From Enoplolaimus lenunculus (Eukaryota), in the NCBI GenBank assembly GCA_030248215.1, contig JASANG010000443.1, positions 248,001 to 312,000 of the forward strand: a DNA stretch of 64,000 nt, in the 5' to 3' direction. Both the position numbers and the translations under genes were made by a program. Shown here piece by piece: positions 2,327-44,341 of the stretch; position 1 is the stretch's first letter; every line of letters begins with the position of its first letter. The notes under the pieces are model-generated. The model was not told where the DNA came from and ran no database searches. It saw nothing but the letters and a program-made list of their open reading frames with translations.

Positions 2327-2540
2327 CATTGCACAAACTGGTGAATCAAATATTGACTCTCTCCGAAATAGACGTTTCGGGATTACACAAATTGAGTAAA
2401 AATTCGACTCCGCCAGAGTCAAATTCGATTCACTGAGTCGCACGTTTGACTCTGGCGAAGTTGAATTCGACTCAGTTTGTGTAGTGTCGAAAAGCCTATT
2501 TCGGACAGAGTCAATTTGACTCACCATTTTGTTTGCAGTG
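2327..2540. mobile_element. Family C palindromic MITE (CACTGCAAAAAATGGTGAGTCAAATTGACTC termini; CMC/CACTA-like)
   Basis: Near-perfect fold-back sequence. Other full or partial copies lie at about 15662-15835, 49220-49606, 51587-51786, 59991-60181, 61442-61652, 62120-62280 and 62652-62845, usually flanked by TA. Confidence 0.75.
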
Positions 2541-2710
2541 TAGATGGCTTGTAAAACATAATAACTCGGTCACATTACAGATGTCATTCGAAACATTTTT
2601 TGGCTTCCAAACCGCATCTTTCAAGACGATTTTATAATTAGAGAAGCATTAGAATGAGTTAGCAAAATGCAATTAAATAACAGGGTGTAACCGGATATTC
2701 ATTTACGGTA

Positions 2711-2957
2711 CACTCAAAATAATATTTCTGATGTTTAAGAAAAAATTCCTTACATTTAAGAAATGTAATTAGCAAGGTGCACTTGAGAAGTATTTCTGTT
2801 ATAACAGAAAAGTGTTCAAAAAATTTTTTTAAATAAAGTCTGAAAATAAACGTTTTCCAGTTATTTTTAGAAAAATTGCCTTAAATATCACAAAAACTTT
2901 TCAGATTTGCCACAGAAAATACGTTTCTAAATAAATTCAGAAATACTTTTTTGTGTG
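2711..2957. mobile_element. CAC-ended MITE nested in a CAGGGTGTAACCGG-type repeat
   Basis: TA-CACTCAAAATAATATTTCTG ... GAAATACTTTTTTGTGTG-TA. Removing it rejoins the host repeat as seen at 56615 ff. Confidence 0.6.
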
Positions 2958-4924
2958 TACAATTCGGTGTCCGTTTCCGTTTTTATATGAATATCAGAAA
3001 TTTTATTTTTATGCTATAAATTAGTTAACGTGAGTTGATGATTTGTTAGTTTAAAGGGTCACAAATAATAACTTAGTTTTAGTTTTCTCGATGTTTACCC
3101 TCTCTGCTCGAATCCAGTAACGCGGCCGTCAAATCGTTTTTACTGCTCCACCCAAATACAGGAAATAACACCAAATTATACACACACCTTCGAATTATAC
3201 GTGTCCTAATTGTTGTAGCCTGATCCGAAACTCTTTGTGCACACTGTGCCTAAATTCCGGTTTAATCCAGCCACTGGTCCACAATATACCAATGTTCTTC
3301 AAGTTCCTCGAAAACCGTGCAACTGTAACCCCGAGAGAATTATGCCCAATGTTTCCAACAGCCGTGCCATTCTAACGCCATTACAATTACACCAAATTTG
3401 TTCCAAACGAACCCCGTTAGAATGGCTTTTCACAGAATTAATGCAAATTTATTCAGAAACAAAACCACAACTCGGTCATGAACAAATCTGAGACTAATTC
3501 CGGTCCTGGCTGCCGTTCTGGATATCTCGACCAAATTTGCATAAAACTTCAACCGAGTCCAGCAATCGGAACTCCGTCTAGTATACCCAACCAGGCCCAA
3601 CACCCAGAAACAACAACATACGACAACAATATACACCCATGTTTTGGGCTGACATTATCCTAGCTATGTCGTTAACTGCAAATACAGGCAGTAAAAATAC
3701 GCAATGTTTAGTGGCCATACAGAGCCCAGATAAAATTCACATTCCGGCACAACCGCCATAGAACTGATTTTATAATCTTTACACCGTAAAGCAACGCCTA
3801 TAAAGCTTAACTTTTGTTCTAAGAGAGACTATGTGGAGCCAGGGACTCCCTTAAGGTATGGTTTAGGATTTGGTTTTAATTTATGTTTTAGTTTTTAGAT
3901 TGAAATATGATTGAGCGTAGCACAGCCAAATTCAATTAAAAATCACGTATATCTCGCAATTTATCATTACAAACATGCTGTAATTGTACGATAAGGAATA
4001 AATATTACAAAATTCATCCAAAATCTTAAAAATTTCAGTGCATCTGCTATTTTTGCTTTAAAATTGTAAAAAGTCCGGTGAATATTTGCATGCCTCAATA
4101 GTGTTGGCAATTACAATAACACATCTTTGCAAAATTTCTACTTCAATATCCGTTTTCCGTTTCCCTATTTTGATTACTAACCATTTCTGATATTTTTACT
4201 ATCCGTTTACGAAACTAACAGCATATTTGCAAACACGCCCTAGGGGCGGAACTACAAGCTTTATTCCTAAGCCTAAACCTAAGCCTTAACCTAACCCTGA
4301 GCGTGAGAATGAGTATATTCCGAAGCCTAAGCCTAAACCTAAGCCAGGCAAAAAATTAGTCCAAAACTTAAGCTTATTCTATTCTAGTCCAACACAAAAA
4401 ACGTTCCACCCCTGATCTTTACATGTGCCCAGATTTCTAAAACCCAGAGAAGCTCTTGTACGCCTTCCCCTGCATGCGCTTTAGGCTTAGCATTAGAAAA
4501 ATATTCACGTTCGTTGAAATGTTTTCCTAAACCTAACCTTTCTTAAATTTTACCAAAGTCTACAAGAACCCCAGACATTTTAATATCTCCTAAATCATAC
4601 AATTTTAAACTTTTTAAATTCTGCAATATTTCAACTGAAACAACACCAACGGCCAGATTTCTCAATTTACCATCATTTGTTTGCTTTTTTTCACACCATT
4701 TTAAATTTTAACCTGTCTTTTGAAGTGATATTCAAAAATAATAAACTGTAATAATTTCCCATTTTATTAATGTACATTGCAATTTATACTGAGCAAACAT
4801 TGTTATTAATATTAATTAAATGATGAAATGCGATACTTTTTGTCTTTTATTGCGTGCAAACAGTTTTAATTTCATACAAATTTTGAACAGAAATTTTTGT
4901 CACCGACACCAGGGTTTTTTTGCG

Positions 4925-5175: not shown

Positions 5176-6091
5176 CGTTTGAATTTTAACAAAAATTCTG
5201 CGGTTGAGAGTAACAGAACTTCCTCGTTGAGGTTTTGAGTTAACGATTACTTGTTGATCCTCGTCTATGCACTGCAAAAAATGGTGAGTCAAATTGACTC
5301 TCTCCGAAATAGGCTTTTTCTGAATACACAAAATTGTCAAAATGTAACTGCAACTGAAAACTTTAAGCTCTACCTTTAAACGAATAACAAAATCTAAACT
5401 TTAAATTCTACTTCATAGCGGCAAGCAGTGATGTTAGCCCCACTAATTCTCAAATATACCTCGATATTTGGTTCAACAGTATCCTTTCTATAGTGAAAAC
5501 GACGCTCCATTGAATTGGTTAATTTTTAAAAATCTGGGTCCTGTTATTTATTATTTCATATGATTTCATATTTAAAGTTTTGAAATGCTCAAAATGCTTA
5601 ACTGCATTTAAACTTAAGGCCAAGTTGTTCCTGTGATTTGAGAATTGACAGACCTCCACAAATATCATAATTTTACACGTTAGTAGATGGCTAAAACAGT
5701 CAGCTATACAAGCAATTTTTACTGAAACTGTGAACAATGCAGACAAACATACTGCAACAAAAAGTCAAAAGTTACACACTTTAGTTTTCGATATAATTAC
5801 TAAAACTCAAAATTCCGATTGCGATTCCGGTTCCGACAAAAAATTTGATTCCGATTCCGATTCCGCTTCCGACAAAATTTACTTCCGATTGGAACCCTTC
5901 TGTATAAAGCGTTTTGTAAATATTCAGTAACAACCGTAGATTACCAAATAACGTGTGCTACGATATTAATAAAAATTTCCAATCCATAAATTAATCATAA
6001 CCCAGTATTAAAATTAAAAAGAGCATAACTTACAACCGCAACAAAAATTGCAATTACCTTTATTGCAGTATTAGTGCAAGCAATTGTGAAA

Positions 6092-7378
6092 ATGTCCGCT
6101 GCGTGTAGCATACCGTGTTCATCGTACATTGTACGAGCGTTGTTCTTTATATTAATCACAGCTGCAATTGGACTTCTTATTCGACAATGCATCGTCCTGA
6201 CCGAAGAATATTTAGCCGATCCGGTTGCGTCGAACGTTTATACGAAAACTCCGCAAGCGTTCCCAGTTTTGATGTACTGTCCTCGTCACTGGATTAACGG
6301 ATCGATCCTAAACCGGTATAATATTTCAGCGGAAGTAATCCTGTTTGCGTTTGGTTTTCTTCCGATGATACGCGATATTACACTATTGACAGCAATTACT
6401 CATGCAGTACGGACACTACAATCGCATGATCCAAGCATTAAGCTGAAAATGCACAATAAATTCTACGACAGCTTGCAACAATTAAACGTGACGTCATTGC
6501 AACTATTTTTGCACGCAATCGCACTTCAACCCAACGCAGTGATTCAAACTGTCCCGCAAGATTCAGTTGGAATTGCAGTTGACATTGACGTTGAATTAAA
6601 GTTAACCGTTGACACGCCGTGTTTTAAGATTAAACCGCTTGTAACCTTGACAATGCTATCAAGTATGTATCAACCACTCATTTTACAGTTCACCTTTTAT
6701 AATCCTTCGCTTCGACAGCTAAATCATCTTCCCGATACTGGACGTGTTTATTTAGGACCACACGGAGAGACAGCTTTTCCAAAAGGCTCAACGCTCCGCA
6801 TTGCGCCAGGGCGTCAGTATGACCTTAGCATCCACGCCGTATCGTTTCGTCGTCTTCATACCGCCGCAAGACCGTGTAGCGATCGCTTCACTGCTGCCGG
6901 CCAAATGGACTGTATAGTTCAGTGTTACAACGAAATCGTCTGTTCTGGCATATGCCGGGTATTTCATCCGAATTACGTCAACGGAAGCTTGAGTAGAAAT
7001 CTGCCTTGTTCAACCTACGACCCCTCGGAAACGCATTGTTTTTCACGATTGCAAACGTACCGATCGTATTTTGACGTCGAATGCGGCAACCGCTGTCCGG
7101 AACCGTGTCAAACGGTCTCGTATCAACAATCAGTGTCAACTGAAGATTCGCCAACCGCTCATCAAAAAAGCCCTTACAACTCACGAATCACGTTGACTTT
7201 CGCTGATCCGTGGAATTGTTTACAAATTGCCGAATTTCGAACGCTCACATTTCCGAGGCTGATTTCAAATTTTGGCGGTGTGATTTCGATATTTTTAGGC
7301 TTTTCAGTGGTGTCGCTTGTGCGTGACGTTGGTGTTATCGTGTATCGTTATTTGTTCGGCGGAAGCACGCGTTTATAA
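6092..7378 (+). CDS. DEG/ENaC (amiloride-sensitive sodium channel family) subunit, intronless, ~428 aa
   Basis: TM1 followed by EYLADPVAS and FPVLMYCP; Cys-rich thumb ending CGNRCPEPCQTVSY; pre-TM2/TM2 LISNFGGVISIFLGFSVVSL with GxS filter. First ATG is at 6092 (the track's start at 6074 is GTG). An unseen upstream exon is possible. Confidence 0.9.
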   Translation: MSAACSIPCSSYIVRALFFILITAAIGLLIRQCIVLTEEYLADPVASNVYTKTPQAFPVLMYCPRHWINGSILNRYNISAEVILFAFGFLPMIRDITLLTAITHAVRTLQSHDPSIKLKMHNKFYDSLQQLNVTSLQLFLHAIALQPNAVIQTVPQDSVGIAVDIDVELKLTVDTPCFKIKPLVTLTMLSSMYQPLILQFTFYNPSLRQLNHLPDTGRVYLGPHGETAFPKGSTLRIAPGRQYDLSIHAVSFRRLHTAARPCSDRFTAAGQMDCIVQCYNEIVCSGICRVFHPNYVNGSLSRNLPCSTYDPSETHCFSRLQTYRSYFDVECGNRCPEPCQTVSYQQSVSTEDSPTAHQKSPYNSRITLTFADPWNCLQIAEFRTLTFPRLISNFGGVISIFLGFSVVSLVRDVGVIVYRYLFGGSTRL

Positions 7379-7402: not shown

Positions 7403-7735
7403 CGCCCATTTATTGAACAGGGCCGGAACAGTAGTAAAGCATGTTCCAAAACCTAAGCCTAAGCCTAAGCGTAAAGATGAGTCTATTCCTAAGCCTAAGC
7501 CTAAGCCTAAGCCTAAGCGTAAGGATGAGTCTATTCCTAAGCGTTAGCCTAAGCCTAAGCATAAGCCTAAACAAAAAATAAGTCTATAGGCTAAAAGTAA
7601 GGATGAGTCTATTCCTAAGTCTTAGCATAAGCCTAAGCCTAAGCCTAAGCCTAAACAAAAAAATAGTCTAAAGCTTAAACTGATTCTATTATAGGCCCTC
7701 CGGTAAACGATCCGGTCATGTTCTATACATGGGCA
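7403..7735. mobile_element. Family A MITE with expanded GCCTAA repeats, about 25 bp after the ENaC stop
   Basis: Family A TIRs; degenerate TSD CTATACTA/ACATACTA; multiple (GCCTAA)n blocks. Confidence 0.8.
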
Positions 7736-9676: not shown

Positions 9677-12279
9677 CACTGTAAATTTCAGTGATTTGAT
9701 TTTAACTCAGAATGAGTTCAATCAATTAGTTTGAGTTAGGACTTTCAGTAATTAGAATTTGGAGTTGATTAAATTCGTGTTAATTAATCAACTCACCCAG
9801 AGTCAACTCAACTCTCAGAGTGACTTATTGTTTACTGATATTAATTCAGAAATAACCAACTCGCTCGCTGCATTGATTAATCAACTCATTGCAATTTACA
9901 GTGTAAACTGCATACAAAAATGCAAAAGTAATCCAATGCTCGGAACGCCGTTTCGCGGTCCGGCAAATGTTTGTTTTGGACTTTTTTGATTCCTTTTCCC
10001 GAATGATAACTTGTTTCATTTTTTATTGGTCACTAAAATTGCGGTTTGACGTTATTGATGTAACCTAATATCTTCAGTTCAAAACCCATAATCTTTCTTT
10101 TTGATTAAGTGATTCTACCGTAATCTCGTTAATGTCGACTGAACCAGATAAAACTTTTGAAACACAACCTTTGTGCTGAAATGCAAGAACGCTAACGTTG
10201 TACTGATTGCGGCACATGTAAACATCAGTGGTTGAACGTTTTGCTGTGGAACAAGAATAGAGTCGCTCTAAATTTCAGTGAGTTGATTTTAACTCAGAAT
10301 GAGTTGAATCCACACAGACGCGTGAGCTCTGAATTAGGTGTTTCAGAACTCAGAATTATGAATTGATTTAACTCATTCTGAGTTAATTAATCAACTAAGC
10401 CAGAATTGAATCAGCTCAGAATGAGTTAATGTTTACTGTTATAACTCAGAAATAACCTGAAATAACCAATTCTTCATCTGAGTTGATTAATCAACTCATC
10501 GGAATTGACAGTGTAACCTTTAAGCTTTAGACTATTTTTTTGCTTGGCTCAGGCTTAGGCTTAAGGCTTAGGAATATGCTCATTCTTACGCTTAGGCTTT
10601 GGCTTTTATGCTTAGGTTTATGAATAAGCTTATAATACTTTGGCGCTGATTGCCAACAATCGTTTGGTGGTAGCTATAAAAACAATGCTTCGCATCAGAT
10701 ATTAGTTTTCAACCCAAAATCTCTATCGCTTGAGTTTTTAATTAAAATTAATGGTGCCATTTTACTATGGGGACCCAAGTAAGAGATGGAGGAAATGATA
10801 TTTTTATTTTTCATCTTTAGAGGATACCCGGTGTTATTCGGTTACGGACGGCATGCATTTTTAAGTCACCCCTCATTAGATTTACGCCCTTCTTGTTTAT
10901 ATTCCTTCTATCGATCAGAACTTTGAAGTTCCACTGTAAACTCCAATGAGTTGATTAATCAATTCCAGCTAGCGAGTTTAGTTATTTCTGTATTAAAATC
11001 AGTCTCCATTAACTCACTCAGAGTTCAGTTGATTCACACTCTCAGTTGAGTTGACCATGGGCGAGTTGAAGAATAAATTGAAACAACTCAAAATTTTGAG
11101 TTCTGATAGTCCTAACTCAAACTTAGTGGTTCAAGTCATTCTGAGTTAAAATCAACTCATTGAAACTTACAGTGTTCCAACGATTTAATTTGCCATTTTC
11201 AGCCAATGAACAATGCTGCTATTTGCGTTGAAATCTTAAAATTAATCAACTCATAGAGAGAATTAGTTATTTTAGGTTATTTCTGAGTTAACAGTAAATG
11301 TTTGTTCACTCTGAGCTGATTTAATATACCGGATCAGTTAATTAACTCAGACTGAGTTCAATCAATTCTGAGCTTGGGTTTTGAAAGACATAAATCAGAG
11401 CTCATATTTCTCCATGGATTCAACTCATTCTGAGTTAAAATCAACTCGCTGAAATTTACAGTGCATTCTTTATGTTATTTGCCAGAGAATAACAACCTGG
11501 TGACTCGAACAAAAGGACGGTCATAAAAGGGGTCCCTATTTTTGTGTCAAAATTCATGGGAATCCACGTGTCCCGTGTTACACTGTAAATTCCAATTATA
11601 AGTTAAACTCACGCAAATAGTTATTTCTGAGTTAATAAATGTTAATTGACTCTGTCGGAGTCGACTTTTGACTCGGTTTGTGTAGTCAGGAAAAGCCTAT
11701 TTCATAGAGAGTCAATTTGACTCGCCATTTTTTGCAGTGTACACTGTGAATTCCAGTGAGTTGAGTTTGACTCAGAGATTGAGAATCAAACCAACTCAGA
11801 GTGAGTTAGTGCTTGCTGTTACTGATTCATAATTAATTAACTCGCTATTTGAGTTGATTAGTCACCTCATTAGGGTTTACAGTGTATGTGAGTAATAAAG
11901 TTTGTTATTTTGTGCGTTGACGTTTCAGTTAGATTCCGTAATTGGAACGAGTCCGCAAATTATAATTACAGTCCATAAAAGAGGTCAGACCACTCGAATG
12001 GCCTAATAAACAGATACTCAGACCACCCGCACTGTAAATTTCAGTGAGTTGATTTTAACTCAGAATGAGTTGAATCAGTCAGTCTGAGTTAAGACTATGA
12101 AATCTCACAATTTTTAGTAGATTGAATTCATTCTAAGTTAAGTAATCAACTCGCCCAGAGTCAACTCACGGAGAGTGTGAATCAACTCAACTTGAGTGAG
12201 TTAATGTTTACTGATATTAATTCAGAAATAGTCAACTCGCTAGCTGAATTGATTAATCAACTTATTGAATTTTACAGTG
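9677..12279. repeat. Cluster of family B/C/A MITEs (B at 9677-9903, 10264-10513 nested in family A, 10932-11174, 11742-11884, 12030-12279)
   Basis: Repeated CACTGTAAA...TTTACAGTG termini and shared internal sequence. Confidence 0.75.
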
Positions 12280-12993
12280 TATGCAACTTGAGCGACTAAA
12301 ATTATCTAAAAAATCATTTGAAATAAATTTATAGAATAAAGATCTATTTTTGAAACACGAAAATTAGTAATTAAAATATTCTATTTTTTTAGAACAAGGG
12401 CTCGTGAAGTTCGTTTACGCTTAAACTCATTTTAAATCTTACATATTTTTTAGTTTAACCTAGCCTTAGGCAATGAACTTTAAGAAACACATAATTTCTC
12501 TGCTGCACTTGTTACTTACTTAAACAAAAAATAAGTTTAATTCCTGGGACAATGTAAAGAACATGGGCGGAACCGTACAAGCATATTCCTAAGGCTAAGC
12601 CTAAGCTTAAGCGTAAGAATGCGCATATTCCAAAGCCTAAGCCTAAAGTTAAGAGCCAAGCAAAAAAATTAGTCAAAGCTTAAACTGACTCTGTTATAGC
12701 CCCTCCGGAAAACGATCCGGCCCTGTTGTATACATGGGCCGAAAAACGTTCCGCCCCGCATCTTTACATGAACCTAATCTCGTGTTAAAGTTAAAAATAT
12801 GTCTAAATGAAGTAACTTACAATTCTAGATTAGTTACTCCGTTCAGCGATTTAAGTTTTACTTAAACTATAATATTCAAGTTTTAAATAGTTTAAGCTAT
12901 AATTTAAGTTTAAGTTTTTACGGAGTATACCTACATATCGTGATCACAAATGAAACCGAAATCATTCCACAACGTCATACTGACAGTTGTAAA

Positions 12994-14051
12994 ATGATTA
13001 CGGCAACTGCGATGTCACTGATTGGCTCAAAACTCGTTTTTGTCGCTATGATGATAGTTGCCGTATGCTTAATGTTTTTCCAACTCGGCCAATTAACAAT
13101 CGAATACGCCTCTGAACCAATAGCGTCCAGTATGAACTCGAAACAGCCGGATAAAATGCCAGAAATTATGTTTTGTCCTCGTTTCTGGATAAACGCATCT
13201 CAAGTGGAACGTTACAGTATATCACATCGTGCAATTGCGTTTGCAATTTCATTGCAACCGTTCGTGCGCGATATTAATTATTGGCTTGCACTAATTAACA
13301 ATTTTAACAATTGCGCACCTGGTGTGGGCTGTAGTCGAACGGCAAATATTGCACAAGAAGTGCAACTGCAGCATGAATACTACAGCATGCGGCGTGCGAT
13401 GAACGTAAGCTCACACGACGAGCTGATGCGATCGTTGGCTCTCGATCCAGACGCAGTTTTGAACAAAATTTCGAATCCGGCAAGTTTTTTAGATTTCAAT
13501 ATCAGTTTGAGTCTTCGTTTAACGCTAGGAATGCCTTGCTATCGCGCAGTTACAACACAAAAACTAAGCGTACTCAATAGTATGTACGAATTTTGGCCAA
13601 TCAAAGTTGTATTCTCTAACTCATCCGCAACTATGCCCGCAGTATCGCCAGTTGGTTGGTTATACTTTGGACCGAGTGGATCTACAATTTTTCCAAAAGG
13701 CGGCGCTGTTCTCATTAAGCCTGGCCGGTCTTATAGGATTCAGCTTCGTGCGACTTCATATCGACGTGTGTCCACACGTAAACGTCCGTGTATCCAACAA
13801 CACGAACAGTCACAGGTGGAGTGTGCTGTTCGCTGTTTTAACACTTTCCTTTGTGGAAACCGAATCTGTCAGTTGTATCTACCGGAATATGTTACCGGAA
13901 GCGTTGGAACGTCGCTTCCGTGTTCTTCGTTCAATTTGGGAACAAGGCGTCATTGTATCATGAAAGATGACCAATCAAAAATTGTTCAGAAGGAAGACGA
14001 ATGCATCAAACGTTGCCCGAGACCGTGTGATACAATTTCATATGATCATGG
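12994..14051 (+). CDS. DEG/ENaC subunit paralog 2, exon 1
   Basis: Colinear with the 6092-7378 protein (EYASEPIAS, MPEIMFCPRFWIN, LYFGPSGSTIFPKG, ECIKRCPRPCDTISY). Ends CAT GG|GTAAGT (phase-2 donor at 14052). First ATG is at 12994. Confidence 0.88.
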
Positions 14052-14155
14052 GTAAGTATTCGAGCAGGTGAAAATTACCTTGGCACAAATAACTGTATCT
14101 ATAATTTTTGTCAGCATTCACTCGTTTCATTCGTTGCTTAACCACGAACTTCATG

Positions 14156-14980
14156 CGGGGTTCACGATATAAATGGTGCAGCTGGGTCACGTTTTGTCAC
14201 GTTCTATATTTTGGGTAACATTTTGTCTGCGATGTAACCCAATATATAATATTCCAAAAACACTGGTTGTCTGCAAACAGGTATCGGTCACATTTTGTCT
14301 TGCAATATCATATGATATCCCCTACTTTGTCTGTCAAAACCATATGAATATTTTACGCGGGAACTTTAAATTTTGGGACGGGACGGAATATCATATGATA
14401 CTAACAGACATGTTCCGTTAGTATCATATAACATTACGAGACAAGTAAATAATAATACTAATAATATGGCGAGAAATTTTAATTTTGGCAGAAGAATTTA
14501 AAATTTGGAGGAAAAATTCAAATTTTGGCGGGAAATTCAAACTTTGGGGAAGTTCAAATTTTGGCGGGAAATTCAAACTTTGGAGAAGTTCAAATTTTGA
14601 CGGGAAATTTAAAATTTGGTGGGAAAATTCCAATTTTCGCAGAAAAATTTAAATTTTGGTGGAAATATTTAAATTTTGGCGGATTGCCTCATTATACGTC
14701 TTAAACTACAAAATAGAATATAATATGATACTCCAAATCCGTCTTGCTGAATATCATACATATGCTGTTAATTTGGAACATCATATGATATTCAACAATA
14801 ATGTTTGATAGTGTCATGTGACATTCAAACACTTGTATATTGAGATAACCTACAGCAGTATCACATGATATTCGACTTTTGTCTGTCCGTGTCATATGAT
14901 GGTAGCAAAAATATATATTGATGTCGAATTAACATGTGACAAAACGTGACCCGACTGCCCAGTTATAACGTAAACACCGC
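14156..14980. mobile_element. TIR element GCGGGGTTCACG(A/T)TATAA... with ATCATATGA-rich interior
   Basis: Left end GCGGGGTTCACGATATAAATGG; right end CCAGTTATAACGTAAACACCGC; AT on both sides. Related ends lie near 21251 and 33412. Confidence 0.6.
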
Positions 14981-16256
14981 ATCAGCAACGTAAAAAAAGC
15001 ATCAAAGTCGTTTAATCTTGTCAGATGAAAACAAAAGATATCAGGTACAACTGAAGGTTTGCCTCCGGCTCCGGCTCCTTCAAAAAATCGGCCTCCGGCT
15101 TCACTGGAATATATTCCGGAGGTTCCGGCAATTTTGGTAGCAAAATTTTGCATAATTTTGCAAAATTTATCTGTTTAGCGGGTTTCGTTTTACTTTTATC
15201 ACAATTTCGAAAAGAATTTACGAAATTTCGTAGAAAATTTGCGTAAAAACCAAACAACTTAACAACCTGTTCCAGGTATTGGCTAGAATTAACCAATTAA
15301 TCACGATTTTTACAACCAAATTTCGCCTCACCTCCGGCTCCGGCAAGTTTCGTTGACCTCGGGCTCCGGTATTTTTCACCTCCGGTTGCACCCTGAAAGA
15401 TAAAGACCTACCATGGACTATAAGCCAAGCTATGAGAACCTTGGAGTATGACAATCCGATAAGCCACAAGCTATAGTATAGCCTAAAAGCCTATAGCCTC
15501 AGTGTAGTCTGACAGCAAAATAAATAAGCTAGCATAGACTTTAAGGCTGCGCGGAAACTTTGGGATTCTAAGATTGTCAAACTCTAAGGTTCCTATATAG
15601 CTTGGCTTAAAGTGAATGAATGCTATACCTTTATTTGTTGTTGTAGACTACACTGGGCCTACACTGAAAAAAATGGTGAGTCAAATCGACTCTGTCCGAA
15701 ATAGGCTCTACGAAATTGAGAAATTGAGGCAAACTTCGACTCCGCCAGTCAAATTCGATTCACTGAATCGCACGTTTGACTCCTGTAGAGCCTATTTCGG
15801 AGAGAGTCAATTTGACTCACCATTTTTTTGCAGTGTATAGAGTTTTTAAACTGCGCGAAAGCTTAGGGCTTCTAGGATTGTCAAACTTTAATATCTATTA
15901 AATAGCAAAGATATAGCCAAGCTATATGAACCACATATAGTTTGACAGTCCTAGAATTACTAAGATTTAATAATCCTTAAAGTTTATAGCATCAATGTAG
16001 TCTAAAACAATATATAATACTATCACAGAACTTAAGCATGTAGCAGGAACGTGAAAGCATCAAAATTTTAGGCTAAAATTTAAGTCTATAATGAGGCGTA
16101 AAAACACAATTACAAAGTTGTTCACAATCTGGCCTAAAAAGTTTGGCTCCAAATCCACAGTCTAAAACTTGAAAAATTTCATAGATCACTATCAGCCCCT
16201 TTCCTCGAAGTACTGCGAATATACATGGTTTTTCCCGTAAATTTCTCCGAAACATA

Positions 16257-16329
16257 TGGCCACGCCGGCAATCGAACCTCGGACCTGTCGCTTGCGAGTC
16301 AAGCGCGCTACCCATTACACCACGCGACC
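16257..16329 (-). pseudogene. tRNA-like / SINE-head sequence (73 nt, CGC at anticodon position)
   Basis: GGTCGCG-TGGTGTAATGGGTAGCGC...GGTTCGATT...CGTGGCCA. A and B boxes, acceptor and D stems are present; anticodon and T stems do not pair. Confidence 0.6.
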
Positions 16330-16788
16330 GATATCATAATTTCCTCTGGTGCAATATGTGTACGAGTATATGTGTGTCTTTAACATTACACACGGTACAC
16401 CACGTATGCTAAATTAGCTTCTATTTTTCTGTTTCTGGTGAAAGTTCTGCCTAAATATATTCCTAAGTACAACTAATTCAAACTTTAAGTTTAAGTTTAA
16501 GTTTAAGTCCGAAGCGCTCGTTTGCCGAACACCCCGGGTTTTATTAAAAGGATAAACCACATTTACATCAACGAAAGCAATTATATAAACCAAAGAAGGC
16601 AACAACATATTATCATAACATAACAAAGGTCCTTGAAAATTACCCATTATTCTACTCTGCTTGCAAGGATATTATTCAGAGCAAATATGTTAAAAAGCAC
16701 ACAAGAAACCTAGTTTCAAAACAAACTACAAATCAGGTACGCTGAGAAAAAGACATTCGAAAACCCAGCATGCTATCATTCTGTCGGG

Positions 16789-19130
16789 TTATTGTTCCAA
16801 AAACCTTAAAAAACATTCTTCTTTTAGATACAGCTTAAGTTTGCACAAATTTCTATAAACATTTTCCTGAAAAACATCAACAACACAGACATTTTCATTG
16901 TTAAACTCTAGTTTACATCGAGCACTCCACATTGCCAATTGTGCATGTTGGACGATGAAATTAAAAGCTATTCTCTTTAATGGGTCGTGAATATTTCGTC
17001 CCAAAATTAAATCCGAAATCGTTATTTCATTTACTCCAGCTACCTGTTGCAAAACGGGAGTAATGAAAAAACTAATTTCTTGCGCCCGCAAACAATAAAT
17101 AAACACATGAACATTATCCTCCCGCACTTCAATTCCATCCAAATAACAAAACGAACATATATTTGTCCCATCTGTAAAATTACTAGTGCGGTGATTAGTA
17201 TACAATGACTTGTGTCTTAACCTAAAATGGACGTCTCGCGCAGAGCCGTCAACATATTTCGCTTTTGCCCATATCCATGATCGCTCGACAAAAATAGGTT
17301 CAACTCCTAGCTCGTCTCGCCAAAAAACATGTTTAGGATGCATGAGTCCCTTATACACAGCGTGTATCCACATTTTATACAATTTATTTGCCGACACTGT
17401 TTTTAAAGATAACTTTTCGCCAAAAAACCAACAAAAATTTCCATCCATTTTAAAAGATGACTCAATCATTGCAATCCGTATCTCTTTATATAACTCCGGT
17501 ACATCAATGCGTCTCAGTTGACGTTTAGTCGAAAACTGAACTTGCCGAAAGAAATGTTCGAAACATCTCTTCCAACTCACAACTTCGGTACCTCTTAATA
17601 TTCGAATATAAAACATTAAACGATTCACTTTCAGTCTGACAAAAATATTTGGGAAATTTATCCCGCCGTGACTAGGTTGTAAAAACAGGATATCCCTTCT
17701 AATAATACTAGCGGTGGACGGGTACCACAACCACTTATAAACCACATTGACAGTTTCCTTCACTAGTTGCTCAGGGGGTGTTACTAATTTTATCAAATAA
17801 TTAAACATACACAAAAAATATATGTGAACAAGATGGATTTTTCCAAAAACAGAGATACCTCGGGGCGGTATTCGCTGTTCAAGACTCACCTAGAACTGCA
17901 TCTGAGTCTGTTACTAACGTGCCATCAGACCTTTCGATCGAGCTTATATGCCTGGCTTCCCAGTTCTTACGTTGAAGAGACTTGACTGTTGCTAAAGAGG
18001 CGTTGTCATTTACCTCACTACCGTAGTACGTATTATGCCTGCAAGAAGCAATATAAAATGCATTCAATAATTCGATTTCATTTTTTAGCTTTTTAAGACC
18101 CGATCTGAGATTCGGATTGTTTGGATACTGTCCTATCAGCATTTGTACATTAATAACTTGGCTCTCTAATGATTTCCTCAACATGTCGCGTTCCTTAGCT
18201 TTATTTTTACCCAACTTTACAAAGAAGGTTTTAACATCAGCCTTAAATACTTCCCACATCATAGAAAACCCTGTGGAAATGTTCATTAAATGTTTGAGCA
18301 GCGTTGAAACAACGGTCTGTACGCCGACTTCACTCAAAAGCAATGTATTCATCTTATAGTATCCTTTACCTCTCTTTAAATTAGGTAAGCGAATCTTAAC
18401 TCTAAACAACCTATGATCTGTCTTGTTCACGGCGCGAGCGGTACACAAAGCGCCCGGTTGTAAAAAAGCCGGCATATAAATCCGATCTATACGAGACTGA
18501 CTTCCATGAATGTCTGAAAGAAAAGTAAAAAAGTCGTTTTTATTTTCGATGTGTCTCCCTAAAAACATCAGATATCACCAACAGTTCCTTCAAACAATAA
18601 AGCTCTCTCAGGCCTTGCTGCTGATCATATGACGGCCGTGATCGGTCCAAAACCGGGTCCTCAACTAAGTTAAAATCACCCAACATAATAACACATTTAT
18701 AATCAAACCAAAACGAATTTTGCACTTGTTGCATCAGCTGGTTGAAAAAAACTACTCGCTGCTCGCCGTTCGCGGGAGCATAAATACCAATTAAGAAAAA
18801 ACAAAGAGAGCCAATACTAAAAGCAATCGTGACCGCCCTACCCTGAATATTAAAAATGTTTTCAATTTGACCAACAGGAGCTGTCCTATTTATAAGGACC
18901 GTTACCCCTGTTTTACTATTCTCCTCGCTTGCGAAACTGTGAAATATTTTAAAATTGCGTGAGAAAATTCTATCAAAAATCTCTGCATCCCAATTGTTTT
19001 TAAAATGTGTCTGTTGCAGACAAATCAAATCCAAATCTTTTATCCTTTCAAAAACTATCGACACTTTTCGAAAATGCTTAATGGATCTGCAATTGAAACT
19101 GGAAAAAGAAAATAAATTTGGCAGATCCAT
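16789..19130 (-). pseudogene. LINE ORF2 remnant: APE endonuclease, linker and C-terminal zf-RVT region; RT core missing
   Basis: APE motifs SFNCRS, ICLQQTH, IYAP, LGDFN, SRIDRIY, TDH across two frames (frameshift near 18545). After DSDAVLGE (~17885) it jumps to post-RT sequence (GISVFGK, GGINFPNI, CSFC...EDNVHVFIYC). No QG/YADD-type RT motifs are seen. Confidence 0.85.
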
Positions 19131-19183
19131 ATTGACTCTCTTTCATATCAATTTAAGGCATGTAAAACAAAAAAAATGCACGT

Positions 19184-20857
19184 TCACATTGCAATGTTTG
19201 GCTTTTTGCCACTAATCACATCTGACTCTTCATACAACCGCTTAACACCTGTAACGCGAGAAGATATATCAGACGATGTGCTTACTGTTCTCACCTTTCG
19301 TAACATAATGTGTTCTCGCACAAGAGTCTGACAGTCACCATTTAAGTTTAAACTGCCAGGACGCCAGGTAACTCTATTTTGAGCTCGATTATCAGAGTGT
19401 CCACGGCCGCAGCTCCAAGGCCCCGGCCCAGGTACAGTCTCAACCAATAGACCCTCTGTTGACAATAGTGTGCGCCCAATCACATCACATTGTTGTGCTC
19501 GTGCAAAACAAATCGTATAAATTAATTCGAAAACGATACACAAATAATGTAACGTTGTGCCCGGCCAAACTATCTGACTATGTAAAAATTTTATTGATTT
19601 AGGATCGTCTGTTCCCCAAACTTTCTCTTCGATATCTTTGCGACCACTGAATCTCGCCTTCCACACTGCGACAAATTTTTCAGGAGATGAGAAAGACTCG
19701 CCCCAAACAGATACTGGATTGTCAACATGGAAATTCGAGAGACGATAATTGCTTGGATGTTTCGAATCAAAAAATGTTTTAACGCCTTCACCCTCAGGGT
19801 GAAATGGCGGAGACATCGATCGTTTCAAATGCAAATATCTATACCAAGCAGAAAAATTGAGAAAAGATTTCCCGGATTCTGGCAGTTTAGTCAAATCCAA
19901 CTTTCCATTGATGACTAAAGCTAATGGTTCTCTCACAATAATATCATTGTTAATGCTGGACTGAATATTTTTGATTAACCCCATCATAAAGTTACTGATA
20001 TCAAGAAACTGCTTGTTTGTATTTAACTTGCTGCGATCATTGTCTATCCCGGCTTTCATTTGTTGCCGTTGTTGTTGTAATTGTTGTTGTTGTATTTGTT
20101 GTTTCTGTTGCTGCTGTTGTTGTGACTGTTGTTTGGGTTCTTGCTCTTCTTGTTGTTGTTTAGCTGAGTTCGTGTCCACTTCAGTGTTGTTCAAAGCAGG
20201 AAAATCAACACAATCTAATTGTTCATGTCCAAATTTATAACATGATTTGCAATACCGACCCATACCCGGGTACCATGCCCGAATTATAATATATCCGCGC
20301 CTAAAATGAGGATCGCACCATTGGAGCCGAGGAGGTATTTTATAGTCGCGGCGGATCTGGACTAAGAAACTTCGACCACTTGAGATGTATTCACTTCCTC
20401 GATGCTTGATGAAACGACCAGGTTGCAAGCACTGAATATTTTGAGCAGCTAAGAAAGACTGTAGCGCTTTATCCGGAACTTCAAAGGGGACGCCATATAG
20501 ATGTAAAGTTCGAACAATAAAAGGAGATTGCAATGTTGCGTCGCGAGGAATTTCTAGAATTACCTCCGAGTCCCCAATTTTAATTGATTTACCCGCTGCT
20601 ATAGATGCAATGTCCTTGGATGGGAAAATAATTTTAACACTATTACTAAACTTCTCACCGCCCTGGACAGTGAAAACCTTATTAACAGCGTTCAGCACTT
20701 CTACGCACGTTAAGTTATTAAGACCATGATATTTAAGATTAGTTACATAGAGTGTTCTAGACCGTAATAAGTTCGCATAGTCCCCTTTTAATTCATTTGC
20801 ATCATTATTACCCTCGACGTCGTAATCCTGATTGTGATCAATTGCTGCCGTGTCCAT
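19184..20857 (-). CDS. LINE ORF1 protein (557 aa): RRM-like region, CCHC knuckle, poly-Q linker, C-terminal NADAR/YbiA-like domain
   Basis: LHLYGVPFEVPD (Tx1/L1 ORF1-type); CKSCYKFGHEQLDC = CX2CX4HX4C at aa 203-216; Q-rich aa 234-266; aa ~359-517 follows the NADAR motif order (LSNFH, FSSPEKF, WKARF, LLSTEGLLVETVP, WSCG, W-x-x-G-x-x-NLNG, LVRE). Confidence 0.85.
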   Translation of the reverse strand: MDTAAIDHNQDYDVEGNNDANELKGDYANLLRSRTLYVTNLKYHGLNNLTCVEVLNAVNKVFTVQGGEKFSNSVKIIFPSKDIASIAAGKSIKIGDSEVILEIPRDATLQSPFIVRTLHLYGVPFEVPDKALQSFLAAQNIQCLQPGRFIKHRGSEYISSGRSFLVQIRRDYKIPPRLQWCDPHFRRGYIIIRAWYPGMGRYCKSCYKFGHEQLDCVDFPALNNTEVDTNSAKQQQEEQEPKQQSQQQQQQKQQIQQQQLQQQRQQMKAGIDNDRSKLNTNKQFLDISNFMMGLIKNIQSSINNDIIVREPLALVINGKLDLTKLPESGKSFLNFSAWYRYLHLKRSMSPPFHPEGEGVKTFFDSKHPSNYRLSNFHVDNPVSVWGESFSSPEKFVAVWKARFSGRKDIEEKVWGTDDPKSIKFLHSQIVWPGTTLHYLCIVFELIYTICFARAQQCDVIGRTLLSTEGLLVETVPGPGPWSCGRGHSDNRAQNRVTWRPGSLNLNGDCQTLVREHIMLRKVRTVSTSSDISSRVTGVKRLYEESDVISGKKPNIAM

Positions 20858-21467
20858 TGGGGTTTGTGGTTGATAGTTAAGGTGGAAGTCTCCTCCGACA
20901 AAATACTGCCGCCTCCAGCAATACTAATGACATCGTGATCAATGGTTGTAGGCATTATTTAATATAAAAGTAAAAACTTTAATTTACAGTATCATATATT
21001 TTACAGGACATTCAGGCTAGTTTAGACAACCATGCAGACATTTTCAAACATGTCATATGATACTGACGGACAATATTTCGAATATCATATAATATTGCAG
21101 TACAGTAGTGGATGTCACATTAAAAGATAGCAGGCAATTCAAATTTTTTGAATTTGACAGCGGATTTACGTGTATACAAAATGTTGCCCGCTATTGTTAT
21201 AATAGGGACAAAACGTGTTCCAGGCTACCCCAGTTATAACGTGAACCCCGCATTATATAGTTAGAAAAAGCTATTGTAAACGATCATAGCATGGTTATTC
21301 GTTCATGAATATCGCAGGGTGCGACTAGGTCCACAGAATTTACAACGATTGCAAAGAGCGAGAAAACATTTTCGACTTTCTTACCCATACCCGCGTCATA
21401 AAAATAAAAGATCAGTCCGTTTTTCGTTTCCGTTATTTTTACAATCTGTTTTACGTTGTGCTTACAG

Positions 21468-21738
21468 GTACTACGTAGATCCGACCAAAATTGAAACCGA
21501 CATTGCAATAATCGATCTTGCATATTCGGAACCGTGGAATTGTTTGGAGTTAGTCGAGTTTCCAACGTTCACAATTGAGTCGCTCGTGTCGAATTTTGGA
21601 GGCGTCATTTCGTTGTTTTTGGGTGTTTCTGTGATGTCGGTGCTCAAAGCGATTGCAATGGTTGTCAACGAACAACTGACGATGGTTACGAAATTACAGC
21701 CGCCTTCGGAAATTACTTTAACTTTGAAGAAATACTAG
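21468..21738 (+). CDS. DEG/ENaC subunit paralog 2, exon 2 (TM2)
   Basis: CTTACAG|G acceptor is phase-compatible with exon 1 (GG+G = Gly). Encodes YSEPWNCLELVEFPTFT...LVSNFGGVISLFLGVSVMSV, matching paralog 1 (FADPWNCLQIAEFRT...). Joined CDS is 1329 nt, 442 aa. Confidence 0.88.
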
Positions 21739-25800: not shown

Positions 25801-28800
25801 CATAGGTATGTTGATCAAAATTTCACCACAACAATTCAAATGCGGTTAGAATATAATGAGTTGATATGTTGGCTATTCAAATACCAGTTTGTGTAAACAG
25901 TGAAATACGTATATCACCTGGAGTATTTTACGACTCCAGAAGCAGTATTCTTAACAAACTATATTATGTACAATTTATTGCCAACAATAGTCTTTATACA
26001 ATTCCTAGCCGCAACAATGTAAACTTATATCAACATTCACTCTCTATAAAGCTACAAGATCTATCACCAACTGGTAACAGGTGCTACGAATACGGGTTCA
26101 GGCGTTAATTGCGATGAACAAATAGAGTAAGACTGCTCATTACTTTTCTTTCTATCGTGCGCCTGGCTAGCACCAAATGCTGCTTTACTAATATACTCTT
26201 TACTAACTTACTGATAGTACTAATTCCTTGAATAAGTTTCACTTGAGATTGCAAACCAAATTCTTCAACTTTTGACGCCAAAAATACACAAGTCGGAACC
26301 AACAAAAATGGATCGATAGACTTCAGGGAATTTCTATTAAAACAACGATGATACACAAACTGCGACAAATATATATACAAGGTGGCAGAGTTCCAACGGA
26401 ATTCCGATTCCGGCTGAAATTCCGACAAAATTTGCATTCCGATTTCGATTCCGACGGTGCGTGATTCCGGTGATGTGTGTTTTTCCATCAAAATTATTTC
26501 ATACTTAAACTTATGTTCCACTTTGATTTAGGGCAATTAAAAAGACAGAAAATGAATTGCAAAACCACCTGATTTCAGGAATTATACTTTGCCACTGAAA
26601 ACTTACACTGAAAAAATACTGTGTAAAGTGTGAAATAAAATCTATTTCGTCTTACGACTAAAAATTACCAAAATCATAACACTTAAATCTAAAAATTCCG
26701 ATTCAGGTTTCGACGAGCAAAATCAGATCCGATTCCGACCCCAACAAAATTAAGTTCCGGTTGGAACCATGCAAGGTGGACATAATTAGACGTCAAAATA
26801 TTGCGTCCCTGCCTGAGCGACAAATAAGTACATAATTATTTTAAGCGCAAAATATACACGGTAACTTAGGCAGTCTCGTCTTAAGACCAAAATAGAATTA
26901 TATAACCATTTTGGAGGGAATTCGGGCCAATATTTCTACTGAGCCTACAGCAATGCCGAAACATTAAATTTTACACACCAGTTTAACAAATGAATGAACG
27001 TTTTACAGGGTCAAACTTTGGTACCTGGCATAAAATCTTTTAAAGTAAATCGTGGCAGACGCAATCACTTGTTGTCGCACTTTGAGCGTTTCTCCCAAAG
27101 TTTGAATAACTAAAATTAGTAATAGAGATGCCGTGGAGCCATAATATTTTACTGAAGCTGGAGATGAAACCTTGGCCTCGGCAACCGGGCTGGTACCAAC
27201 CAGAGCCAATGAATATTCTGTAAAAAGCATTTTGTTTTGTCAACACAGCCGTTTATTGCACGACAAACAAGTTTTTGCTGAAAAATTAAACGTTGAGCAT
27301 AACGAATAATTTCTATTTAAAGCCATATTCACACGTGAATACTAGAAGATGTTTGATTACGTTTTTACATCGCCTGAAAACCAGATTCTTATTCATAGCT
27401 TCAACACGCATCGAGTGAAGTAAAGACATCACTAAAAACTTGGACTCCGTTAGGCTCCGGGACCTTAACCCCTTTACAAGGGCGACGATAAGTGGGGCGA
27501 TTAAGCGCCCCCCCACATTGGTCCGAGCCGACCAAAATTTTCTCTGCCTAATTTCTAAGTTCCGATCGTTTTTCTGAAAAAATGTTAAAAACATTTGCGC
27601 ATCGCGCATCTTAAGTAAGCACCAGGGTGCAACCGGACGTGAAAAAATACCGGAGCCGGAGGTCAACAAAACTTGCTGTAGCCGGATGTGAAGCCGGTTG
27701 TGAGGCGAAATCAAATAGTTAAAATGATGTTTAATTTGTTAATTTTAGCAAATATCTCTGATGCGTTGTTAAATCGTTTGGTTTTATGCTTATTTTTTAA
27801 CGAAATCTCGGCAATTTTCTCCTCAAAATTGTGCCAAAAGTTAACACTAAACGCGGCAAACAAATAATTTTGTGCTAAGCACTCTTCATGGTGGCATTTT
27901 CATCCCGTGATCAGGTGGTTTTCACACTTTACCCTGGCGAAAATAGTAGGCTAACTGCAGGGTTTTTTTCTGTTATCCGCCGGGCCCATTACCATGAAGG
28001 GCCAGTGGGGAGGGGGTGTGCCACGTGGAACAGTTCGCCCCCTCCTAACCTTGCCTGTTAGTCAAAGAAAACCCTTATTGCCCCTAATAAAATTTTTTAG
28101 CCTTCCATAGTAAGGTGAGCTGCCTACGAACCTCTATCCCTCAAGCCGGCGTTTGCCCAAAGATAGTTGGATTTTGAAAATTATTACATATATGAGCTTC
28201 TCATAACCTTCCCTGGTCTTTCCACTGTTAAATTAGAATTTTCGAAAAATTTGATTTTTAAGGTCCCAAGAATCCCCATTGGGACCCAAATTGTTTTGTT
28301 AAAAAGTTAAACATATTATACATCATTCGACGCAGCCTGTGAAATGGGTCCAATTTTGTTAAATTTTTCTCAGTTAAACCTCTGGTTACCACGTTATGGT
28401 CAAATTATTGATTTGCGCCATCTGAAATCGTTGGCAGCGTGCCTAATCAGTTATTTGACCATAAGTTGTTAGCCAATAGACAGACGTTTGATTGCAGAAA
28501 ATTAAGCATAGTTAGACTCAGCTCCACAAGTTGCGTCGAATGCAAGAAATTTTTGGGTCCCAAGGGGTCCCTGGGACTTTAAAGATCAAATTTTTCAGAA
28601 AATTCAAATTTGGGCGTGGAATAACCGGAGGGTGTTATGAAAAGTTCAGATACGCAAAACTTATCAAAATCCCGGCATCTTTGGGCAAATAACAGCTGAG
28701 GGATAACGGAAAAGTCAAAAAATTGTGCATGCGTCCCCGTTAGGTTCTTCATATCACCGCCACTGCCCAGATACCGGGGGATCTCTAATTTGTAGTATAA

Positions 28801-29394: not shown

Positions 29395-30867
29395 CAGTTA
29401 GTATTCTGTGACGTAAGAGTTCAAATACGCATACGATCATTAATATTAAATATACACTTAGATTAAGATTTGAGACACATGTATGTCCAATATTATGCCA
29501 AATCTATTGCCACTCAAACGCACAAGTGTTCCATTCTGCAAATTAATACAATACAAACCGGACCTAAGCATGGAAAGTATGCAGGGTGCAACAAGAATTA
29601 CAATTTACCGAAACCGGAATTTAAATTACCGGAAACAAAACCGGAAAATTAAAAGTGCATGCCATAGAAAAATTCATTGTAATGTTCTTTTTTGTAATTT
29701 TATTAGTTGAAATAACCCTAGTTAATAATAGGTACGTATTCACTTTACTACGTATACTTATGAAATTATTTAATTTTTATCGTCAGTATTTGTTAAACAT
29801 CTTATTTTCCGCTGATCAAAATTTAATACCAGAATTTTTAATTCCAGTAAAAAATTTACTGCAACCAGAAGGTGAAAAAATATCGGAACCGGAACGCGAT
29901 TCAAGTTGCGCCCTAATAGAATGCAGTGGCAGATCCAAGATTTCTCAGTGGGGATCATGCGAAGTTGATGATTTGCTAGTTTTAAGGCCCCCATATCACC
30001 ACTTAGTCTTAGTGCTATCCCGCTGTTACACTTATCGCTCCGATTTAGTGACGCGGCCGTATTAATGTTTACTGCCCACCCCAACACCGATATGACACCA
30101 TTTATTAATATGACACAATTACGGCTCAAGTTAAAATATCCTAATTGTTGTAGCCTGATCTGAAATCTTATGTGAGACGTGCCTAAATTCTGTTTATTTT
30201 AGCTACTGGCTCACAAAATACCAATATTTCTCCAAGTCCCCCCAGAAAGCTGTGCAATCCTAACCCCATTAGAACAACACCAATTTCTGCAAAACTAACC
30301 CCGTTACGCCTAAGCCTAACTTAACTTCTAAGAGTGACTAAGTAAAGCCATGGACTCCCTTAAGGTGTGGTTTGGGCCTTGTGGTTTGGTTTTAGTTTAA
30401 TTTAGCTTTTAGTTTGAAATATGGTTTGAGAGTGGCACAGCCAGCTACAGATCCAAGGTTGACCGATCACCTCTACCTTCCGACGACCTCACCTAAAAAT
30501 AACAATTTTAACGGAACTGTCGAACTGGTGCGCCAAAACAGTATAACCGGCCTAAAATTTTGCCATACTTTGGAAACAAGGGCAATACATTTATTGATGT
30601 TTTATCTTTAAATATGCTACACGATATAGGTACATTTTATAAGAATGAAAAGCCTTGATATAAATCTCTGTTGTTGGAGAGTATTCCGTCGTGCAGAAGT
30701 ATTTACAAGCGAGCATTATAAGCGAGTAGTTTTGATGTACGCGACCGCGGTTACTTCACGTCTGTACGTCTCCGACGTAAAATACTGAACGAAGGAAAAC
30801 TTGGGGGCGAAGCGTGTTGTTGGTACTATACGGTCTGCACGACCCCTGTTTGAAGTTTTGCCAAATT

Positions 30868-30939
30868 TAACCACACCGGGAATCGAACCTCGGCCCTCTT
30901 GCTCTCGAGAAAAGCATGCTACCACTACACCACGCGGTC
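30868..30939 (-). pseudogene. tRNA-like sequence (72 nt, CGA at anticodon position, no long variable arm)
   Basis: GACCGCG-TGGTGTAGTGGTAGCAT...CGAGGTTCGATTCCCGG-TGTGGTTA; same family as 16257-16329; anticodon and T stems mismatched. Confidence 0.55.
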
Positions 30940-31824
30940 ATTGCAACAACTTCTTATACCGGTATATGTGCACAGGCATGGCAACATTTGCTTTACATAC
31001 CACATATACCGACTCTGTACGTCACCGAGGTAAAATATTGAACGAAGGAAAACTTGGGGGCGAAGCGTGTGAGAAACCAGATGTAATTCTAGTATAATAC
31101 CGAAAGCCTTAAAATTTTGAGCCACGCATGCCTGGTCATCTAATCCCAAATCAGTACCCTAGATCCGCCCTGGTCGGTATGTAGTGCTTAAAAATACCAT
31201 AGTTTGTGTATGCTTTTGCCTATCGAAATCTGATTAATACCACCGCCCTAGCTAAGTACTTAACGTGTCTATTTCGAATCGTGTCCTAAAATGTGAATAA
31301 TTAAAGTATGTAAACGTTCTTTGCCAGTTTCTTAATTTGAAAAGTAATTATTTCCTCGTATGCCAAGAGTTACACCTAATGCAATTGTTTAAATCCAAAG
31401 GAGAAATTGCGTTTTAAATTTAAATATAGCTACAGAGTACACACCTATCAGCAAGACGCTGCAGTCCATTTTTCAGTCGAATCGTTTGACAAAGACCCTG
31501 CTTAAACTTCATCTTCAGATGTTATGTATTTTGTTGGGTTTGAAACATTTCAATTAATGGGAGACAACTTCTCCAGAAATACAAAATACGATACTAAAGA
31601 AATTTTGATCATAAAAAGTTAACGGTTGCGCTTTTTTTTTATCAAGTCTGGCCCAGTTCGTCCCCATCCATCACCGTGCGTCATCCTTACGGCGCCGTCC
31701 GTCATTGACCGTCACTATACGGTTTCACGTGGGTGTAACGTGCGTGCAATAACGCACGGTGACGGACAGCGCCGTACGGTTGATGCACGGCGACAGACGG
31801 CGCCGGACGGCGACGAAAGTCAAG

Positions 31825-44158: not shown

Positions 44159-44341
44159 GGCCAATGTAAAGAACAGGGGCGGAACAGTGTTATAAAGCGT
44201 AATCCTAAGCCTAAGCCTAAGCGTAAGATTGAGCATTTTCCTAAGCCTAAGCCTAAGCGTAAAAGCCAAGCAAAAGAAATTAGTCCTTACTCTATTGCAG
44301 TCCCACAGAAAAACGTTCCGCCCCTGATCTTTACATGGGCC
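44159..44341. mobile_element. Family A MITE
   Basis: GGCC termini; degenerate TSD GAAACCGC/GAAAATGC. Confidence 0.8.

Follow-up and report, generated by a model that had tools for sequence, protein, structure and literature searches.

The locus described here raises the question of what a NADAR domain does in the first open reading frame of a LINE retrotransposon, and whether it belongs to the element at all. The window, that is the whole stretch of 64,000 nucleotides (64 kb) analysed, carries an open frame that a sequence-only reading had taken for a LINE ORF1 protein fused to a NADAR/YbiA-like domain, and that reading asked whether such a fusion had been described before, whether the family keeps it, and whether the domain could be binding-only.

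Architecture of ORF1 and identity of the NADAR domain

ORF1 and its parts are the following.

19184..20857, minus strand, ORF1, 557 aa, open frame (open-reading-frame call)
20273..20761, minus strand, two predicted RRM domains, aa ~33-195 (structure model and Foldseek)
20210..20251, minus strand, CCHC zinc knuckle, aa 203-216 (sequence)
20060..20160, minus strand, Q-rich tract of CAA repeats (sequence)
19817..20035, minus strand, predicted helical segment, aa 275-347 (model)
19307..19774, minus strand, YbiA-type NADAR domain, aa 362-517 (Pfam, family profile, model)

As had been claimed, the 557-aa frame is open and adjoins an APE-type ORF2, the endonuclease frame beginning 54 nt downstream of ORF1; it should be added that the ORF2 of the window copy is broken, as described below. 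The CCHC knuckle and the poly-Q linker of the earlier reading are likewise present at aa 203-216 and 20060-20160, and C203, C206 and C216 of the knuckle are invariant across 37 aligned rows. For the N-terminal part, a full-length model of ORF1 gives Foldseek matches to tandem RRMs at E 3e-5 and up, a profile built from 37 ORF1 relatives matches the nucleolin RBD12 weakly (E 0.002), and a Pfam search for RRM in ORF1 gave none.

The NADAR/YbiA identity is borne out by profile and structure comparisons. The Pfam NADAR profile PF08719 matches aa 362-517 over positions 2-162 of its 163 with an E-value of 4.3e-6, the score of 27.5 bits being below the gathering score of 35.1. As a single sequence ORF1 matched none of the solved NADAR structures, and the profile of the 37 relatives reaches 8BAU, a NADAR of Phytophthora nicotianae, at E 1.4e-25 and YbiA (2B3W) at E 1e-23. 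Moreover, the AlphaFold model of aa 300-530 has a mean pLDDT of 91 and gives in Foldseek exactly two matches at E < 0.001, which are again 8BAU and 2B3W (probability 1.0; TM by target 0.69 and 0.74), the YbiA fold consisting of a helical core and two small sheets, and an Atlas feature search with the query also yields NADAR clusters (0.93). A chance profile match was rejected in view of the scores of the relatives, which go up to 120 bits with the Pfam profile, the confident model and the recurrence of the motifs in 33 clusters. It is the residue in the last strand that defines the NADAR subfamilies, namely Glu in YbiA, Asp in BC4488 and His in phage (PMC11125620), and E473 of ORF1 aligns with E125 of 8BAU, as in the YbiA subfamily. 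In front of the core, the stretch of aa ~320-347 is common to the closest relatives, and the high-confidence model places it beside the NADAR core.

The LINE copy in the window

The element around ORF1 and the intron that holds it are composed as follows.

16489..20973, minus strand, RT-deleted copy of an L1/Tx1-type LINE, ~4.5 kb (extent taken from the duplication)
17890..19130, minus strand, N-terminal part of ORF2, comprising the APE endonuclease and a linker, with a frameshift near 18543
16789..17889, minus strand, C-terminal part of ORF2 beyond the RT deletion, containing a Cys/His motif (42-49% identity to RT-bearing ORF2s)
16489..16508, minus strand, 3' tail of (CTTAAA)n repeats (sequence)
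16480..16488, no strand, probable target-site duplication AAACTTTAA, 3' side (sequence)
20974..20982, no strand, probable target-site duplication AAACTTTAA, 5' side (sequence)
14052..21467, plus strand, intron of a DEG/ENaC host gene, GTAAGT...TTACAG, containing the LINE (GT-AG ends, gene match)

The L1/Tx1-type setting read from the sequence holds: an ORF1 with RRMs and a CCHC knuckle stands upstream of an APE-RT type ORF2 whose relatives are closest to L1, and the RRM and CCHC in ORF1 fit the Tx1 clade. The APE frame is similar to the endonuclease of human L1 (E 7e-4), and its Q-E-T-H motif has Gln in place of the Glu of relatives. The C-terminal piece of ORF2 matches six RT-bearing ORF2 proteins out of 838 candidates at 42-49% identity, two of the six being complete with endonuclease and RT. 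One complete relative, P0083, gives E 3e-82 with human L1 ORF2p vs 6e-16 with R2, in a PDB comparison that comprised L1 and R2 only. Aligned with P0083, the window ORF2 has residues 11-428 and 809-1164, while residues ~429-808, about 380 aa with the whole RT, are absent at about 17890; moreover, an extra base near 18543 is absent in the other copies seen in contigs of sequencing runs. Because ORF2 is frameshifted and its RT deleted, the window copy lacks the intact, RT-bearing ORF2 of an autonomous LINE; it is dead and cannot move alone.

The marks of a non-LTR insertion are the 9-bp duplication, the (CTTAAA)n tail and a 3'-biased depth. The 9-mer AAACTTTAA occurs 12 times in the 64-kb window, so that the duplication alone supports the ends of the element weakly. 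In run X1, a joint leads from 16496 to 21002 with 14 letters between, which resembles an uninterrupted target repeat. Within the 64-kb window no second copy of the LINE was found. The element is antisense to the host DEG/ENaC gene, and the host is a probable nematode: TTAGGC, the nematode telomere motif, occurs 113 times in the window vs 22 times for TTAGGG. About 160 bases past the 3' end of the LINE, a tRNA-like sequence at 16257-16329 on the minus strand (Rfam 32.1 bits, without an ARAGORN call, in a bin of very high depth) likely forms the head region of a SINE of tRNA origin.

Copy number and spread of the family

The abundance of the element was assessed in three runs, which represent no more than two samples from a single study and are possibly the source of the window, with contig depth as a rough copy estimate. 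In run X2, one contig of 540 bases spans 19169-19708 with one differing letter at a depth of 3,526, against a depth of 37-46 for the flank contigs, that is ~75-95 times the flanks for the NADAR-domain contig; over the three runs and the ORF1 sites, the excess amounts to 18-270 times. The depth in X2 is ~2,500-3,500 across ORF1 and up to ~10,900 near the 3' end, a gain that is expected from the 5' truncation of LINE copies. Among the matches listed, the ORF1 variants have at least 7 differences, with 4 synonymous and 3 nonsynonymous.

At the protein level, 79 proteins of a 50%-identity library match ORF1 at E 0.001 or better, and the CCHC knuckle and the NADAR occur together in 33 of 80 when the query is counted in (clusters below 50% identity), counting only NADAR stretches of at least 120 aa and dropping shorter ones. 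Word-indexed protein searches gave 0 of 5,442 candidates with ORF1 and 0 of 7,993 at E 1e-10 with the alignment of the relatives, which in both cases is taken as a limit of sensitivity, as relatives exist; metagenome scans for the DNA loci of two relatives confirmed 0 of 42 (P0002) and 0 of 221 (P0014) pattern matches. The pairing of ORF1 with ORF2 was examined by comparing contig sizes between 31 ORF1-side and 6 ORF2 records. P0007 pairs with the complete ORF2 P0083 by an exact contig size of 5,652 and a shared source, and P0048 with the ORF2 P0082 by an exact size of 8,010, again with a shared source; with jittered sizes, two matches came up in 7 of 100,000 trials. Very probably, on this indirect evidence, the NADAR-bearing ORF1s of P0007 and P0048 adjoin RT-bearing ORF2s.

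The domain is nevertheless dispensable in some lineages, because the ORF1 relatives P0022 and P0049 have no NADAR although they lie on contigs of 6.5 and 11 kb; altogether 7 of 37 N-terminal rows are without NADAR, some of them cut short. The family-wide retention on which the sequence-only reading had made its claim depend is seen in the multi-copy depth and in the 33 knuckle-NADAR clusters. A one-off capture is rejected by the many copies and by the fusion in 33 clusters under 50% identity, and the fusion is real, family-wide and probably selected.

A kept catalytic centre in a remodelled pocket

Residue positions were mapped via the alignment with 8BAU, for which chain numbers equal the paper numbers plus 2. 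The query keeps the equivalents of E43, K50, K75, E125 and W133 as E393, K400, K423, E473 and W481, and has S427 for R79, Y438 for W89, V442 for R93 and P478 for D130, the last of which agrees with the earlier remark that the Asp of D-x-x-W is absent. By mutagenesis, the equivalents of E43, K50 and E125 are needed for hydrolysis of guanine-ADP-ribose (PMC11543638), the Glu is essential in SCO5665 (PMC12945103), and the first Glu and the Lys matter in T4 AdfN (PMC11825919); in the E. coli C7 NADAR, SCO5665 and T4 AdfN, mutating catalytic positions abolishes or weakens hydrolysis (PMC11543638, PMC12945103, PMC11825919). This catalytic set of an ADP-ribosyl-guanine hydrolase is complete in the query as E393, K400 and E473. 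The pyrophosphate is contacted by R79, W89, R93 and W133, and by D130 via water only (PMC11543638), and from this set only W481 is kept. The functional residues of YbiA, as cited second-hand, are Glu48, Trp89, Asp130 and Trp133 (PMC6469090); of this set, which serves the N-glycosidase action on riboflavin intermediates, two of the four are kept, with Trp changed to Tyr and Asp to Pro.

The same pattern extends over the LINE-type branch of the NADAR tree described below. Of the 42 rows of this branch, 40 have the E43 equivalent, 39 a Lys or Arg at K50, 40 the E125 equivalent and 39 Trp133, and the two exceptions at E125 look like a local gap shift, the Glu being invariant in a second alignment. 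Arg at R79, by contrast, is present in 4/42 LINE-type rows vs 16/27 outside, and a basic residue at R93 in 0/42 vs 13/27, while the Asp of D-x-x-W occurs in none of the 19 rows of the query subclade, in 21 of the 23 other LINE-type rows and in 24 of 27 outside. Because this Asp is absent in the subclade and the two phosphate-binding Arg are mostly lost, the pocket is remodelled, and judging from the aligned rows the catalytic centre is kept inside the rebuilt pocket, the changes being lineage traits. As to the suggestion that the domain could be binding-only, the lost Asp is indeed listed as functional in YbiA, but its contact is water-mediated, and binding-only is not established because the three residues for hydrolysis are kept.

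History of the domain

A quick tree was made from 69 NADAR domains, after three duplicate repeats of P0047 had been dropped, and in it a branch with SH-aLRT 99 separates all 33 knuckle-bearing rows and 9 others, mostly fragments, from the rest; the query sits on a fairly long branch. With a midpoint root and outside rows that are only those retrieved by the query, the tree suggests at most that the NADAR-ORF1 fusion arose once. Over 443 pairs, which are not independent, the mean identity is 34% for the NADAR vs 27% for the RRM-CCHC part with a Spearman correlation of 0.74, and the better conservation of the NADAR fits joint descent under selection, as far as such sequence comparisons go.

Other arrangements of the domain were also observed. 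P0056 has a Ty3/Gypsy-type RT and RNase H (aa 9-333) followed by a NADAR (aa 530-684) that falls inside the LINE-type branch, adjoining the query subclade with SH-aLRT 96; a search for an integrase in P0056 gave no match, and a domain exchange between LINE and LTR element is possible, as is an artefact of nested insertion. Outside the LINE branch, P0047, P0052, P0075 and P0051 consist of NADAR domains in tandem, two to seven per protein; P0047, with 4,240 aa, has seven, several of them near-identical.

Relation to known systems

The question whether the fusion had been described before can be answered: it has, briefly. In Crassostrea gigas, several families of Tx1 LINEs in Repbase are reported to have a YbiA-family NADAR in their ORF1, in one paragraph with Fig. 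S2 (PMC12477816). Like ours, these are L1/Tx1-type LINEs with a YbiA-type NADAR in ORF1, and thus the NADAR-ORF1 fusion is already known in outline from oyster LINEs, as that paragraph describes it. The published record found is this single paragraph, which is without residue analysis or function (PMC12477816). Compared with the oyster elements, known to us by description only, the points that are new concern the host (probably a nematode), the pocket, which is remodelled throughout the subclade with an intact catalytic centre, and the breadth of the family with its multiple copies shown, although the oyster alignment figure may already show the residue states. Literature on NADAR combined with transposable elements, retrotransposons, or ADP-ribosylation and ORF1 gave nothing relevant beyond PMC12477816 among the matches listed, and a narrow search, mostly of sources outside subscription journals and Repbase, returned no report of Tx1/L1-clade LINEs in nematodes.

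Among other relatives, 8BAU and 2B3W share the predicted fold and the equivalents of E43/E48, K50, K75, E125 and W133, but the structural identity is only 15-16%, the equivalents of G78, R79, W89, R93 and D130 are replaced, and the NADAR of the window is fused to RRMs and a knuckle. The DarG1 antitoxins (BC4488 family) and T4 AdfN/gp30.3 belong to the same superfamily and act in a conflict setting, whereas the residue at their family-defining position is Asp or His and that of the window NADAR is Glu; an antitoxin of the DarG1 type was rejected on account of this YbiA-type Glu, a match to 8BAT of only E 1.7, and no ART partner gene at the locus. In Ectocarpus, a Gypsy lineage (IV) is described with a bacteria-like YbiA-family NADAR in Pol's N-terminal region (PMC12477816), which is also a retrotransposon-borne domain of the YbiA type, but in Pol of an LTR element rather than in ORF1 of a non-LTR element. 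Finally, SNA-3 of C. elegans is an RNP-associated protein of a nematode that likewise contains NADAR domains, but it is described as a host trans-splicing factor with three of them (PMC9303266).

Proposed function and alternatives

L1 ORF1p coats the element RNA in cis, and by analogy the ORF1p of the NADAR-LINE family, with its two predicted RRMs and knuckle fused to a YbiA-type NADAR, would do the same. The particle would then carry a NADAR N-glycosidase in cis, and this enzyme would free the RNA or cDNA of the element itself from base-linked ADP-ribose or some related ribosyl adduct, keeping reverse transcription from stalling. From the conserved residues we infer that the domain is active with a base-adduct substrate, and a particle-borne N-glycosidase that clears element RNA or cDNA of base-linked adducts is our tentative preference, a reading that we hold for quite possible though short of probable. 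It is drawn from the conserved catalytic residues, the fusion with RNA-binding parts, the activity of NADARs on RNA and DNA, and their use in conflicts. In fact, NADARs strip guanine ADP-ribose from both RNA and DNA (PMC11833690), phages use NADAR as counter-defence (PMC11825919), and animal RNA viruses have either a NADAR or a macrodomain, largely alternating, in an account whose relevant passage mentions no retrotransposons (PMC9503650).

The nature of the mark is the difficult point. The tested NADARs remove guanine-N2 ADP-ribose and are inactive on phosphate-end marks (PMC11833690), and guanine-N1 marks made by PARP15 resist them (bioRxiv 10.64898/2026.03.31.715305). Human PARPs write guanine-N1 or phosphate-end marks (PMC11833690; bioRxiv 10.64898/2026.03.31.715305), and in the literature consulted, no animal enzymes other than pierisin and the clam CARP-1 are named as writing guanine-N2 ADP-ribose (PMC12945103). 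Because the tested NADARs spare phosphate-end and PARP15 guanine-N1 marks, a host writer is missing from the proposal, and a counter-defence role faces the difficulty that the marks of human PARPs are not erased by them. The loss of the Asp and of the two phosphate-binding Arg suggests that the LINE NADAR acts on a substrate or linkage unlike that of the NADARs studied so far, guanine-N2 ADP-ribose.

Several alternatives should be weighed here. The domain might be a non-enzymatic module that associates with RNA, ADP-ribose or an RNP factor of the host and aids in particle assembly, localisation or TPRT, as the changed equivalents of Asp130, Arg79, Arg93 and Trp89 would allow, and the nematode SNA-3 offers a precedent of NADARs in an RNP setting, its first domain being described without the conserved residues (PMC9303266). 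However, the two acidic catalytic residues and the basic one persist in nearly all 42 rows at ~34% mean identity, which fits catalysis better than a scaffold, and we regard this alternative as rather unlikely. An active N-glycosidase could also serve housekeeping in the element cycle or act on a small molecule without reversing any host attack, the substrates considered being an RNA-processing by-product, a NAD-derived signal or a damaged nucleotide. For such an enzyme one can cite that YbiA cleaves small riboflavin intermediates (PMC11543638), that processing of RNA intermediates has been proposed (PMC12477816), and that low-molecular-weight ADP-ribose derivatives are the proposed substrates of viral NADARs (PMC9503650). 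We nevertheless think it unlikely, as the RNA-binding fusion and the predicted helical extension point to a polymer substrate, nucleic-acid-acting NADARs being known to bear extensions (PMC11543638), and phosphate-end ADP-ribose is not cut by the tested NADARs (PMC11833690).

That the domain is a functionless passenger or a chance resemblance is very improbable. The sub-threshold Pfam score of the query and the NADAR-less relatives would agree with it, but the open frame and the motifs are kept in the 33 clusters below 50% identity, relatives score far above the query, up to 120 bits, the model is confident, and the NADAR is conserved better than the RRM part, so this reading is largely refuted.

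Accessory enzymes of retrotransposons are pointers to host defences, and an ADP-ribose eraser kept over dozens of diverged LINE families would imply that nucleic-acid ADP-ribosylation is an anti-transposon mark in invertebrates, in parallel with phage NADARs and viral macrodomains. A bolder version of the particle-borne N-glycosidase, which we offer as a long shot, is that retrotransposon RNA or cDNA in invertebrates is marked by the host with a base-linked adduct of the ADP-ribose type, that a broad lineage of LINEs brings along a NADAR eraser in its particle, that the pocket of this NADAR, with the catalytic Glu-Lys-Glu kept, is tuned to a linkage uncut by known NADARs, for example PARP-made guanine-N1 or uracil-N3 ADP-ribose, and that the domain was once passed to the Gypsy-type P0056. 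If true, hosts would have a chemical means of defence against transposons that has not been described, and NADARs a novel specificity.

Other features of the window

The DEG/ENaC (ASC) gene that holds the LINE is the second of a tandem pair of nearly intronless genes, located at 6029-7378 and at 12994-14051 plus 21468-21738, and its 7.4-kb intron is full of nested repeats besides the LINE. Two stretches, 15637-15834 and 12030-12900, contain short repeats in very high copy number; with their sharp ends and inverted termini they are MITE-like. Further along, a cyclin gene exon (Pfam Cyclin_N), which we take to be cyclin C-like, lies at 26105-26527 on the minus strand, and a tRNA-Ser(CGA) was called by ARAGORN at 30867-30940, also on the minus strand. 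Degenerate TTAGGC arrays are dispersed at 1928-2079, 7452-7654, 44195-44262, 52340-52403 and 58994-59067, as telomere-like repeats within interspersed elements.
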